Shown: piece after piece, positions 1,614-4,974 of the stretch
Numbering within the stretch: the stretch's first letter is position 1
Layout of the letters: the number at the start of each line of letters is the position of its first letter
From: Alphaproteobacteria bacterium
Lineage (GTDB): Bacteria > Pseudomonadota > Alphaproteobacteria > Micavibrionales > UBA2020
DNA: 64,000 nt
Assembly: GCA_041287865.1 (NCBI GenBank)
Contig: JBGGMV010000028.1
Location: forward strand, 100,964 to 164,963
Reading direction: 5' to 3'
Made by a program: the position numbers and the translations under genes
Notes under the pieces: generated by a model
Databases searched by the model: none
What the model was told of the DNA's origin: nothing
The model's input: the letters and a program-made list of their open reading frames with translations, nothing else

Positions 1614-2450
1614 TTACGCGCGCCCGAAAACGCCGCCGATTTGCTTCGCAAGGCCGCGTTTGGGCTTTTTCACCCGCAGGGGTTTTTTCTTTACCTGCAC
1701 GTCGTTTTTCAGTCTCGTGGCCAGTTCGTCCGGGCCCAGCACGGCGGCGCGGGCGAAGTCTTCGGGGAATTTGTTTTTCAGGCCTTCCAGCCATTGCACG
1801 CGTTCATGCGCGGGGGCCTCCGCGATTGTATCCAGCTGGTAGTAAAACGCGCGTTCCAGCGCGGGCAGGCCTTCGACTTCAAAATGGGTGAGCTGACGCG
1901 GTTCATTCTCGCGCGCCCGCGCTTCGCGCCATTCGCGGGTGACCTTGCGGCCGGTGCCGATATTCATCAGCGCGCGGGGGCCTGCGGCGCAGGCGCCCGC
2001 AAGGCAGAGCGCGGCAGGCGCCGCCACCATCGTCACGGCGGAGACAAGCGGGAAGAACGCAAGGCCCGCAAGGGCGCAGGGCGCAAGCGCGGCAAGACCC
2101 GTCAGCGCGGGCGCGAAGATCAGCTTGGCCGCAAGCCCGCCCGCAATCAGGGAGCCCGTATGCAGGCCCATCAGGCAGAAGATATTCTTGAAGGGCAGCA
2201 TGCCCGCCCGCGCCGTGTCGCGCAGGAAAATGCCGGCCGGCATGGTTTTATAGGCGCGCGGGCCGCTGCAATAATTTATGCCCAGCGTTTCGATTTTATC
2301 CAGCCTTTTGGCAACCGCGCGCGGCACGGACTCGAGCAGGAAATCGGACGTGGTTTTAATCACCCGCGCGTAAAGGCGGAAATTGGGCAGGATGAAATGG
2401 TCGTAGGTGCTGCGGCCCGCCTTGGCCACGAAACCGGCGAGAGTTTTCAT
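1614..2450 (-). CDS. Hypothetical hydrophobic-hairpin protein, family A, candidate T4BSS effector
   Basis: Gly/Ala-rich TM segments; ERVQWLEGLKNKFPEDF module; tail LKNDVQVKKKPLRVKK; ATGA overlap with upstream paralogue. Confidence 0.8.
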   Translation of the reverse strand: MKTLAGFVAKAGRSTYDHFILPNFRLYARVIKTTSDFLLESVPRAVAKRLDKIETLGINYCSGPRAYKTMPAGIFLRDTARAGMLPFKNIFCLMGLHTGSLIAGGLAAKLIFAPALTGLAALAPCALAGLAFFPLVSAVTMVAAPAALCLAGACAAGPRALMNIGTGRKVTREWREARARENEPRQLTHFEVEGLPALERAFYYQLDTIAEAPAHERVQWLEGLKNKFPEDFARAAVLGPDELATRLKNDVQVKKKPLRVKKPKRGLAKQIGGVFGRA

Positions 2451-3217
2451 GGCGCGCCCCCCTGCCCCGTATCGGGCGTTGGCGCGGGCGCGCGGAGTTT
2501 CAGCGGGCCTTTCACCGTGACGGGCGCGCGCAGCACGGGCGCATGCGCGTCGAGATGCGCGGCCTCGTTGAATTCGGCGGGGAAGCGCTTGCGCAAAGTG
2601 CGGAAGAAAGCTTCGCGCGCGCGACCGTTCTGCAGCCCGATCAGGCTGAGGTGATTGTCAAGTGAGTCGGTGAGCGGCGGATGTTTCGGCGGTTCCGGCA
2701 CGGTGACTTTCGGCGGGTTCATGCGATACTGGCGGCAGAGCTCCGCTTCGCGGAAACCCTTTGCCAGCATGGTGGGCCAGCAGATCGTCGCCGCCGCGGC
2801 CATCGGCAGCAGGATACTGCAGCCGACGCCGATTGCGGTTGCGACCAGCGGCGCTGTGACAACACCGGCGGCAAGGGCAGCCGCAGCCGCCAGAATTCCC
2901 TGACCACCCAGCAAGGCCGCTGTGCCCGTGGCCGCGTAAAAGCCCGAAGTAACCCCAGCCGCAAGTCCGCCCAGCATCAGCACAGGGCTGTAGGAAGTGG
3001 TCATTGCCTCGCGCACCGCGCCTGTCTTGCGCGCAGGCATCGCCAGCGTGGCAGCAACCACGTCGCGCCAGCCGTAGGTGTCGCGCGGGCTGTCGTCATG
3101 CTGCGCGCAGGCGTCGAGTTTTTTCGACAGCCAGCCGCCGATATCGAGGGCGCTCATCATCAGCATCGTGAAGTAAGCGTTGCCGAGATCGCTCCAACCC
3201 TTTTCCCTTACCGCCAT
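2447..3217 (-). CDS. Hypothetical hydrophobic-hairpin protein, family A, candidate effector
   Basis: GGGAGG RBS before ATG 3217; REAFFRTLRKRFPAEF module; tail VLRAPVTVKGPLKLR. Confidence 0.8.
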   Translation of the reverse strand: MAVREKGWSDLGNAYFTMLMMSALDIGGWLSKKLDACAQHDDSPRDTYGWRDVVAATLAMPARKTGAVREAMTTSYSPVLMLGGLAAGVTSGFYAATGTAALLGGQGILAAAAALAAGVVTAPLVATAIGVGCSILLPMAAAATICWPTMLAKGFREAELCRQYRMNPPKVTVPEPPKHPPLTDSLDNHLSLIGLQNGRAREAFFRTLRKRFPAEFNEAAHLDAHAPVLRAPVTVKGPLKLRAPAPTPDTGQGGAP

Positions 3218-3340
3218 GCGAGGCCTCCCGCGCCGCAACTGCGCCGCGTTTCCGCCTGATATGGATCGTGCCGCAAAACTGTCATCGGGCCCCTGAAGAT
3301 CTCCGGCCCTCCATGGGAAGGCCTTGAAAAAACTGGAACA

Positions 3341-3369
3341 ATAATACCCGATACCCCCTGTTGCGTCAA
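3341..3369 (-). promoter_or_regulatory. Sigma70-like promoter for the 3217 gene
   Basis: TTGACG-N17-TATTAT on minus strand. Confidence 0.5.
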
Positions 3370-3415
3370 TGATTATGGTAAATAAATGAACGGCGCAACA
3401 GACCGGCGGCCGTCC

Positions 3416-4195
3416 TTAATTCGGCAGGTTTTTCAGGTCGTTAGCGGCGCGGCGCGCGGCGGCGGGGACGGCTTCGCGCTTTTCGGTTTTGCGCGCGGCT
3501 TCGAGGAATTCCTCGGGGAAGTGTTTGGCAAGGCCGTAAATCCAGTTCGCGCGCTCGCCGGGCGTTGATTTTTCAGCGAGTTTTTCATCATCAAACACCG
3601 CCTGGCAGAGCGGGCCGAGGCTGCTTTTCTCTTCCTCCTGCGCGCGCTCCTCGTTGTATTTCTGCTGCTCGAAAAAATTCCTGCGGCGGCTGTAGCCGAC
3701 CGGAATATTGCAGATGGCGCGGAAGCCTTCAGCCGCCGCGCGCGGCACGGCCCGTGCCGCCGTCAGGCAGATCGCGCCGACGGCTGCGGATACGGGCAGC
3801 GCCGCCGCCGCCGCGATGCAAGTGACGGCAAAGCCGGCGCCGAGCAGCGGTCCCGCGCCCATCACCAGCGCCGTCCCCGCCGCCACCGACAATAATTTGC
3901 TCACAAATCCGCCGCGCATCCTGTGGCGCAGGCTGCGCGCCATGCCGCAGATGAAAACGGCCTTTGGCGTGATCTTGTGGCTGTTGGCGGAATCATGTTC
4001 CTGCATCGCCTCGCCTTTTTCATCCAGCTTGCGCAGCCAGCCGTCGAGCTTCTCGGCAAGGCCATGGGCGAAGAAACGGCTGACAGGACCATAGAGCTGT
4101 GCCAGGAAATCCGGCCCGAAGGACGGCGGGGGGAGCGAGTCCTCGTAATCCTCGCGCCTGTAGAAACGGGAGCCGACGTGGTTGTAATACGTCAT
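3416..4195 (-). CDS. Hypothetical hydrophobic-hairpin protein, family A
   Basis: TM-rich core; ERANWIYGLAKHFPEEF module; ATGA overlap with upstream paralogue; lacks the KPLKLK tail. Confidence 0.8.
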   Translation of the reverse strand: MTYYNHVGSRFYRREDYEDSLPPPSFGPDFLAQLYGPVSRFFAHGLAEKLDGWLRKLDEKGEAMQEHDSANSHKITPKAVFICGMARSLRHRMRGGFVSKLLSVAAGTALVMGAGPLLGAGFAVTCIAAAAALPVSAAVGAICLTAARAVPRAAAEGFRAICNIPVGYSRRRNFFEQQKYNEERAQEEEKSSLGPLCQAVFDDEKLAEKSTPGERANWIYGLAKHFPEEFLEAARKTEKREAVPAAARRAANDLKNLPN

Positions 4196-4974
4196 GCCGC
4201 ACCGCCCAGACGATCCATCAGCGTTTTCTTTTTCTGCTGGAACTTTATCTTTACCGGCTTCATCACCTGCACCTTGTCGCGCAGCACGGTATCGGTATCG
4301 GTGCGGCGCACGGCTTCGGCGAATTCATCCGGGAATTTCGCCTGCAGGCGGCGGAAGAGCTGCTCGCGCTCGTGCTGGCCCTGCTCCGTCATTTCCTCTT
4401 TGGTGGCTTCGGCGGCGATCACCAGCGGATGCGGCTTTGCCACGGTTGATTTCGATTCCTGCTTCCATTCCTTCGTCTCGGCACAGCCGGCGATGTATTC
4501 TGCCTTGATTTCTTTCCAGTTGCGCGCGATGAGCACGCCGGATGGTATCGCCAGCAGGGCTGTAAAGGACGTCGCCGCCACGGCAAACGGCGCCACTGCC
4601 GCGCCGATGCCGAGCGTGCCGAGGCCGAGCGCAGCGCCTTTCAGCGTCAGCAGCCCGCCCCATGTCGCGCCCAGCCAGGGCCCCGCGAAGCACATGGCGG
4701 TGATGCCGACTGCAATGCCGACAATGCCGCAACCGATCGCGCAGCCAAGACCGATGCTTTCGTTGTTGTCGATAAAATCCCAGATTTTGGCGAGCTGTTT
4801 GGCGACCGCGATGCCGGGCCGCGTGCGCCAGGCGGTGCGCGGATTGTCCGGCTTTTTCCGCGAGACTTCGTCCATCTTCTCGTAGAACAGCGCGGTCAGC
4901 GCGATGCCGCCGGCGATGTAACCGATCGCCGCTATTTCGCCGATATCATCCCATTCGACTTCGGAACTTCTCAT
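4192..4974 (-). CDS. Hypothetical hydrophobic-hairpin protein, family A, candidate effector
   Basis: Start chosen because MRSSEVEWDDIG aligns with paralogue MAVREKGWSDLG (alternative ATG at 5004); EREQLFRRLQAKFPDEF; tail VLRDKVQVMKPVKIK. Confidence 0.8.
   Translation of the reverse strand: MRSSEVEWDDIGEIAAIGYIAGGIALTALFYEKMDEVSRKKPDNPRTAWRTRPGIAVAKQLAKIWDFIDNNESIGLGCAIGCGIVGIAVGITAMCFAGPWLGATWGGLLTLKGAALGLGTLGIGAAVAPFAVAATSFTALLAIPSGVLIARNWKEIKAEYIAGCAETKEWKQESKSTVAKPHPLVIAAEATKEEMTEQGQHEREQLFRRLQAKFPDEFAEAVRRTDTDTVLRDKVQVMKPVKIKFQQKKKTLMDRLGGAA

Follow-up and report, generated by a model that had tools for sequence, protein, structure and literature searches.

Paired hydrophobic-hairpin proteins with a shared basic C-terminal tail as candidate transmembrane effectors of a Dot/Icm-type secretion system in a Micavibrionales bacterium

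The window analysed here is a stretch of 64,000 nucleotides from an alphaproteobacterium of the order Micavibrionales (UBA2020; GenBank assembly GCA_041287865.1, contig JBGGMV010000028.1, positions 100,964 to 164,963 of the forward strand). At its positions 1614-4974 lie four tandem genes, here called A to D, which encode proteins with a long Gly/Ala-rich hydrophobic block, a conserved module around the motif FPxEF and, in A, B and D, a basic C-terminal tail that recurs on many other proteins of the genome. Since the same genome encodes a Dot/Icm-type (type IVB) secretion system, hereafter T4BSS, we favour on balance the reading that A-D are transmembrane effectors exported by this system into the membrane of a target cell. 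The array is laid out as follows:

4192-4974, minus strand: gene D, 260 amino acids (aa), alternative ATG at 5004; upstream member of pair 1, B/D-type subgroup
3416-4195, minus strand: gene C, 259 aa; downstream member of pair 1, A/C-type subgroup
2447-3217, minus strand: gene B, 256 aa from the ATG, alternative TTG at 3238; upstream member of pair 2, B/D-type subgroup
1614-2450, minus strand: gene A, 278 aa; downstream member of pair 2, A/C-type subgroup
4192-4195, minus strand: ATGA shared by the stop codon of D and the start codon of C (translational coupling), also present in contig L001 and genome G014
2447-2450, minus strand: ATGA shared by the stop codon of B and the start codon of A, also present in L001 and L002
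5026-5054, minus strand: sigma-70-like promoter of the D-C pair, TTGACA-N17-TAATAT, with TTGACATAAT as its -35 element
3341-3369, minus strand: sigma-70-like promoter of the B-A pair, TTGACG-N17-TATTAT
1592-1604, no strand given: G+C-rich hairpin adjoining the 3′ side of gene A, with an A-run on one side and a T-run on the other, scored on the plus strand only

All four are real genes, because their codon-model scores are positive and their orthologues are conserved with a ratio of nonsynonymous to synonymous substitution rates (dN/dS) below 1; the starts at 3217 (B) and 4974 (D) are backed by the N-termini of orthologues. The original prediction, made from the DNA letters alone, had described four minus-strand genes in two ATGA-coupled pairs, each pair with its own TTGAC-N17 promoter, and coordinates, overlaps and promoters were all borne out. 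A promoter scan found three promoter-like sites in 4 kb, compared with 1.1 ± 0.9 in shuffled sequences, and the two listed above both fall in the intergenic region 5′ of their respective pairs. The hairpin next to gene A is possibly a bidirectional terminator.

The four proteins are only 22-26% identical to one another (pairwise BLASTP E values from 1e-10 to 3e-2), in keeping with the strong divergence outside the shared parts that had been noted at the start. The long hydrophobic region also noted then was measured as an uninterrupted block of 57-81 aa with 39-44% Gly+Ala in each protein, and it is followed by the FPxEF module, the best conserved segment of the family:

4522-4764, minus strand: hydrophobic block of D, residues 71-151
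3743-3913, minus strand: hydrophobic block of C, residues 95-151
2759-2986, minus strand: hydrophobic block of B, residues 78-153
1977-2192, minus strand: hydrophobic block of A, residues 87-158
4309-4380, minus strand: FPxEF module of D
3494-3565, minus strand: FPxEF module of C
2558-2629, minus strand: FPxEF module of B
1743-1814, minus strand: FPxEF module of A

No N-terminal signal-like segment is present in A, B, C or D. The blocks contain no polar gap, and therefore the external loop, if there is any, would be tiny; Lys/Arg residues stand on both flanks of each block, which fits both flanks being cytoplasmic. The block of C has a clean two-helix length, A, B and D have an additional, weakly to strongly hydrophobic segment ahead of the block, and D has an N-terminal hydrophobic helix at residues 11-32. 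In a profile alignment, a mid-block P and the residues R, F, P, F and A are invariant, L is nearly so, and the common module is (E)R-x6/7-L-x3-FPxEF-xxA. The motif first proposed, ERxxxxxxLxxxFP[EAD][ED]FxxA, thus stands as a module of all four proteins except for its first residue: 'ER' reads 'AR' in the window's B, which leaves only the R invariant. Identity to the L001 orthologues is 67-96% in the module, 42-63% in the hydrophobic block and 48-60% in the N-terminal region. The segment EF-x-E-A-A bears a weak likeness to FFAT motifs and lies inside a predicted helix. Each block has 4-11 small-xxx-small (glycine-zipper-like) spacings; no Pfam glycine-zipper match to A-D was found, nor any immunity-like neighbour gene.

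AlphaFold2 models of the proteins are all-alpha (A: predicted local distance difference test score, pLDDT, 72.5 and predicted template modelling score 0.51; D: pLDDT 61). In the model of A, the helices H90-112 and H119-162 form a hairpin around a six-residue loop (113-118). In both models the final 20-35 residues have very low confidence, and the C-terminal tails of A and D are probably disordered. The fold search was run with the model of A, that of D (pLDDT 61) being too weak to search with. Foldseek found no match in the PDB (best E 0.5, TM < 0.25; generic long-helix proteins only), and a sequence profile search of the PDB returned only noise. The colicin pore domains and type III secretion system (T3SS) translocators to which the original prediction had compared the family were thus not recovered by structure prediction and fold search, and both identities, as well as an SmhB-type one, are rejected as claims of homology.

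The tail is found near the C-terminus of three of the proteins:

4243-4272, minus strand: tail core of D, VQVMKPVKIK
2492-2521, minus strand: tail core of B, VTVKGPLKLR
1665-1700, minus strand: tail of A, a variant one residue longer, followed by 16 more residues to the end

Its consensus across the genome is phi-x-V-x-K-P-L-K-L-K, and B and D follow the form phi-x-V-x-(K/G)-P-phi-K-phi-(K/R). A regular-expression scan of all open reading frames (ORFs) with 80 aa or more, taken from the whole 3.6-Mb genome, gave 75 matches, 65 of which lie within 15 residues of a stop codon (6.7 expected). An iterated position-specific scoring matrix (PSSM), applied to our own gene calls, identified about 246 tail genes, as against 3 in a mid-protein control, and scored B and D as tail-bearers. 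The set has a distinctive composition: the ankyrin signature occurs in 62 of 246 tail-bearers versus 53 of 2979 other genes, and an N-terminal signal-like segment in 7 of 246 versus 593 of 2979. Thirty-eight tail-bearers have a hydrophobic block, and in 20 of these it is single, long and uninterrupted, versus 87 of 1243 other genes, although the paralogues in this last comparison are not independent and its p-value is overstated. Ankyrin-rich, signal-poor and with single long blocks, the tail-bearers look like injected cargo. Tail genes are also concentrated near the T4BSS loci (30 on contig C28, 18 on C66), where they flank dotM-dotL and dotD. The general tail does not include the FPxEF module, which precedes a tail only in members of the A-D family and in no tail-bearers outside it. 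The hairpin-plus-tail design as such recurs in several unrelated families.

Several further observations concern the tail. Other tandem arrays of tail-bearing proteins (139-194 aa, with one long hydrophobic block) are located at C64:103652-105514, C8:132464-133623 and C125:3520-6368. Glutamate is about two-fold enriched genome-wide at many positions from -9 to -24 before the tail core, and the cytoplasmic half of the DotM homologue is basic (net +14), which together recall the E-block/DotM pairing of Legionella. The A-type proteins (window 1614-1664; homologues P0013, P0014, P0017 and P0018) have a basic/aromatic extension of 15-20 residues beyond the tail, which is conserved in kind across distant homologues.

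The genome encodes a Dot/Icm-type T4BSS with its coupling complex (DotB, C, D, G, H, I, L, M, N and IcmT), part of which lies at the far end of the window:

54539-57619, minus strand: icmB/dotO-like gene, 1026 aa, DotO-sized, weak match only
57878-58627, minus strand: icmJ/dotN (3e-26)
59091-60035, minus strand: traQ-like gene, weaker match
60446-62002, minus strand: icmG/dotF-like gene, weak match
62105-63481, minus strand: icmE/dotG (1.5e-38)
63478 to past the window end, minus strand: icmK/dotH (PF12293, 7e-45)

Two DotI copies follow just beyond the window. On the same contig, about 55 kb upstream, are DotD (1e-36), DotC (7e-70), DotB (6e-117) and IcmT (8e-27), and contig C66 carries DotM (1.8e-48) and a DotL-type coupling protein (5e-111). 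DotH was found in 58 of 61 relatives from eight families of the order, as well as in five named metagenome-assembled genomes (MAGs), some of them labelled Micavibrio sp. The inventory of other systems covered VirB4, VirD4, the type VI sheath protein TssC and secretins: VirB4 and VirD4 (type IVA) have no Pfam match in the genome, the TssC gene was not found in it, and there is no sign of an injectisome, the genome's only two secretins adjoining Tad and type IV pilus ATPase genes.

Two further features of the machine were noted. The DotL-type protein (C66:119214-121790; L146:5214-7790) has an acidic C-terminal extension (residues 600-858, net -12) with four P-[LVF]-S-W-x-[DE]-V-I-[GS] repeats, of which three or four, S-to-N variants counted, are kept in the DotL of G005, G001 and G019; adaptors or the basic tails could dock at these repeats. 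Directly downstream of dotD-dotC-dotB-icmT (C28:37225-44467; L010:6225-13467, minus strand) are a gene for a 499-aa protein with a TcpQ-like C-terminal domain and then four ORFs of 446-518 aa, without family match and with acidic C-termini ending in E; the ORFs of this region may be parts of the T4BSS specific to this lineage.

The array genes constitute an orphan, lineage-restricted and very rare family. Pfam, NCBIfam and PADLOC scans of A-D gave nothing above noise. Seven relatives other than the proteins themselves came up in a word-indexed search of 5.8 billion proteins, and only 24, at E ≤ 1e-3, in an exhaustive profile search covering 1.84 billion cluster representatives; the 15 of these 24 that were read are 218-289 aa long and all have the same layout. 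There was no match by tblastn in plasmid and phage collections and none in a scan of genome contigs with the family pattern. Of the 42 genomes compared from this GTDB family, only the window's own and G014 have strong matches, and remote superfamily members occur in eight further genomes of three genera. The label 'RNAse (barnase) inhibitor barstar' on the B-type homologue P0002, a JGI metagenome protein, has no support from domain searches. The superfamily is also represented on contigs C70, C76, C82 and C106 of the same genome and by three tandem distant paralogues in the window, all of which combine a hydrophobic block with an L-x-D-R-L-x-x-EF module and the tail:

9915-10757, minus strand: first gene of the trio
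10881-11735, minus strand: second gene of the trio
11728-12603, minus strand: third gene of the trio

The trio matches the family with hidden Markov model E values from 2e-9 to 1e-4 and, in hhalign, with a probability of 97.7% (E 2e-12). A maximum-likelihood tree separates A-type and C-type proteins with their relatives from B-type and D-type proteins, the 9915-12603 trio and their relatives (support 98/99), and therefore both coupled pairs are made up of one protein from either ancient subgroup, which suggests that an ancestral pair was already heterotypic and underwent duplication afterwards.

The original prediction had taken the array for a diversifying one, shaped by an arms race with target cells, and the comparison with related assemblies lends this no support. 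The Logan contig L001 has the order D-C-(88-aa ORF on the other strand)-B-A between the same neighbours, L002 has C-(88 aa)-B-A, the 4-nt overlaps are kept in both, and the genes are one-to-one orthologues in the same order. G014, whose DotL is 93% identical to that of this genome, has only the D-C pair, between M48 peptidase and DUF6782 genes; the array therefore varies by whole pairs and not through rapid turnover. Relative to L001, dN/dS is 0.45 for A, 0.36 for B, 0.40 for C and 0.29 for D versus 0.18-0.30 for four neighbour genes, and overall it ranges from 0.29 to 0.52 in the array versus 0.15-0.30 in the neighbours. A-D are thus old paralogues that evolve faster than their neighbours, yet under clear purifying selection. 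Congeners, considered for an empty-site comparison, lack a close orthologue of the DUF6782 gene next to the array. The conserved 88-aa ORF between C and B (L001:6221-6487; L002:684-950) was not found in this genome by tblastn, and the C-B spacer here measures 177 bp.

How might such proteins work? The most likely mechanism comes from tying the family to the genome-wide tail and to the Dot/Icm system of the same contig, a connection that the original prediction had not made. We infer that the T4BSS reads the tail, and likewise the topology, the translocation, the formation of heteromers and the target. The protein plan would comprise cytoplasmic N-terminal helices, the hairpin block, a cytoplasmic helical region with the FPxEF module and a disordered tail. 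Made without a Sec signal, the proteins would be soluble or would reside transiently in the inner membrane of the producer with both ends inside (N-in/C-in). The DotL/DotM/DotN coupling complex would recognise the cytoplasmic C-terminus, upon which the proteins would be extracted from the producer and injected. On arrival, the hairpin would enter a membrane of the target cell with both soluble ends facing the cytosol, and the FPxEF helix could be either an internal recognition element or the active end there. Since each coupled pair consists of one B/D-type and one A/C-type protein, a heteromeric complex per pair is likely; and because the tail repertoire is ankyrin-rich, a eukaryotic host membrane is the more likely target.

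There is a close parallel in Legionella, where about a quarter of the Dot/Icm substrates are membrane proteins that need a C-terminal signal on the cytoplasmic side (PMC11602083); here, 38 of the 246 candidate substrates have a hydrophobic block. Most of these effectors with transmembrane domains (TMD-effectors) adopt the N-in/C-in orientation, their periplasmic loops are very short, and ahead of injection they can be drawn out of the inner membrane, in which they form an intermediate (PMC11602083). Our family, judged by sequence, fits each of the expectations for such effectors: with, for example, SidF (Malmsheimer et al. 2024, PMC11602083) it shares the lack of a Sec signal, a putative C-terminal signal region, a predicted N-in/C-in topology with almost no external loop, and a genome that encodes Dot/Icm with the DotL/DotM/DotN coupling complex. 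Topology with short loops (< 30 aa) is indeed what the unbroken block, the 6-aa loop of the AlphaFold2 model and the basic flanks predict. The two differ in that there is no kinship in sequence or fold, the present organism is an alphaproteobacterium and not a member of the Legionellales, and IcmS was not detected here.

A number of points weigh against export by the T4BSS. Hydrophobicity fails to separate the supposedly exported proteins from resident ones: per-protein peak values have a median of 2.07 in tail-bearing versus 2.16 in resident membrane proteins (p = 0.05), and a lowered hydrophobicity of the tail-bearing segments, considered as a mark of export, was dropped because the difference lacked significance in peak windows and was marginal in per-protein maxima. 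The membrane passes could number two, three or four across the family (two or three in A, B and D). The tail of C and its orthologues is a degenerate remnant, and that of A is displaced by the 16 residues beyond it. The tail is a sharply conserved Lys-rich motif, unlike the degenerate signals of Glu and small residues in Legionella. IcmS (PF12608) has no match in the genome, though control genomes gave none either; IcmS/W have been described as gains specific to Legionellales (PMC8896642), and in Legionella every tested TMD-effector required IcmSW. Finally, the tail and the machine show no simple co-variation, the T4BSS being order-wide and the tail type lineage-specific: G001, of the same GTDB genus and with a DotL 74% identical, has 3 PSSM matches in 400 kb versus 21 in an equal sample here. 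In G053, from another family of the order, there are 2 matches. The G001 orthologues of tail proteins end in another motif, approximately phi-x-A-P-x-T-A-x-F-[KR]-x-K (for example L143:7972-8502 and L137:6598-7062), and superfamily members of G014 and G019 carry the tail type of this genome. It seems that the tag drifts between lineages while the machine stays constant, which is compatible with co-evolution with a receptor but is no proof of a link. A dependence of tail type on the C-terminal repeats of DotL was rejected, as the same repeats occur in genomes with different tails.

Some of these points lend themselves to another explanation, to which we give a minor but appreciable chance: A-D could be resident inner-membrane proteins, for instance of the envelope or accessory to the T4BSS, with the basic tail as a tag for localisation, membrane association or turnover. 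The hydrophobicity of A-D is typical of residents (maximal Kyte-Doolittle value 2.1-2.2; genome median 2.16), the tail type does not follow the order-wide T4BSS, and C is conserved despite its poor tail. Yet the same tail on 62 ankyrin-signature proteins and about 200 signal-less soluble ones is hard to square with an inner-membrane tag, the absence of the family from most congeners with the same T4BSS shows that it is no core component, and it evolves faster than its neighbours.

It is rather unlikely that A-D are membrane-damaging toxins (pore formers or depolarisers) that the T4BSS injects into bacterial prey or competitors of a Micavibrio-like predator, although the glycine-zipper-like spacings of the blocks would suit such a role. 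A T4BSS that kills bacteria is described for Pseudomonas putida IsoF (PMC9519443), and the closest named relatives are labelled Micavibrio, whose cultured representative is an epibiotic predator (PMC3189940). By TsaD, the organism falls among alphaproteobacterial MAGs (75% identity to one MAG, 56-66% to those labelled Micavibrio). The 2011 genome of cultured M. aeruginosavorus, however, was reported with neither a type III nor a type IV system (PMC3189940), and therefore the lifestyle should not be assumed from the label. Neither homology nor fold links the family to colicin pore domains, T3SS translocators or other toxins, the partner within each pair is a homologue and not an immunity-type protein, and no candidate immunity gene was found. 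The dN/dS values well below 1, the old and syntenic paralogues and the dominance of eukaryote-type ankyrin repeats in the tail repertoire also speak against toxins. Of the original suggestion of signal-less membrane-inserting toxins or translocators there survives a signal-less protein with a hydrophobic hairpin that probably acts in the membrane of another cell; the likeness to colicins and T3SS translocators found no support from Pfam, Foldseek or the PDB profile search. A bolder version, which we regard as improbable, is that the coupled pairs are heteromeric conduits or pores injected via Dot/Icm by an epibiotic predator related to Micavibrio and opening the prey membrane for feeding, with the tail as a new, lineage-specific address code of the T4BSS. 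We know of no precedent for a type I system with some 246 substrates that include hairpin membrane proteins and ankyrin proteins. Export by that or another route reading C-terminal signals, such as vesicles, with the T4BSS there by coincidence, is the least credible of these readings: type I substrates likewise have uncleaved C-terminal signals and the sharp tail consensus is unlike known Dot/Icm signals (PMC11602083), but the tail genes cluster beside the T4BSS loci.

Transmembrane effectors of the T4BSS thus remain the reading that we prefer, and other known systems can be compared with it. Chlamydial Inc proteins are small, have a long bilobed hydrophobic hairpin with both ends in the host cytosol and are often encoded as tandem diverged paralogues, but they are type III substrates with N-terminal signals. 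A-D share with them the long hairpin domain (about 40-60+ residues there, 57-81 aa here) and the tandem diverged paralogues; they differ in that no injectisome was found, the conserved element is C-terminal, there is no homology, and the block is longer and rich in Gly/Ala. Substrates of VirB/D4 (type IVA) systems, such as VirF and VirE2 of Agrobacterium, are transported by means of a positively charged signal at the C-terminus. A short, basic and unstructured signal of this kind on unrelated proteins would be common to both (it is putative here), whereas the present genome has no Pfam match to VirB4 or VirD4 and its tail has a fixed alternation of hydrophobic residues and Lys with a conserved Pro. 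With the ten-helix colicin pore domains and hydrophobic T3SS translocators of the IpaB/SipB/YopB class, finally, the family has in common a hydrophobic helical hairpin in a signal-less protein, and it lacks a Pfam or NCBIfam match to them, receptor or translocation domains, an immunity gene and a T3SS.

Two other places in the window deserve mention. At 7628-8380 and 8344-9930 (plus strand), overlapping genes encode polytopic membrane proteins with HE-x-x-H motifs and no Pfam match, which also adjoin the array in L001 and may be membrane metalloproteases of an undescribed family. At 16436-17041 (plus strand), inspection by eye alone picked out a 201-aa product that resembles dual-specificity phosphatases of the eukaryote type: it has the phosphatase-type motif H-C-x-x-G-x-x-R-S, and its C-terminus contains FPEKF.

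Hairpin transmembrane effectors are already known as a kind of protein from injection systems; the family is new, being homology-free, extremely rare, paired and marked by an explicit tag. If its members are indeed T4BSS cargo, they would make up a new family of effectors that insert into membranes, free of homology and from outside the Legionellales, encoded in heterotypic coupled pairs, in which an unusually well-defined C-terminal tag would sit near a strongly conserved internal module. This would provide a defined peptide and a set of partners (DotL/DotM/DotN) with which to study how a T4BSS recognises and extracts hydrophobic substrates, a study that is hard in Legionella because the signals there are degenerate. 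The order-wide presence of Dot/Icm, together with the ankyrin-rich repertoire, points to eukaryotic hosts, and not bacterial prey alone, for uncultured bacteria related to Micavibrio.

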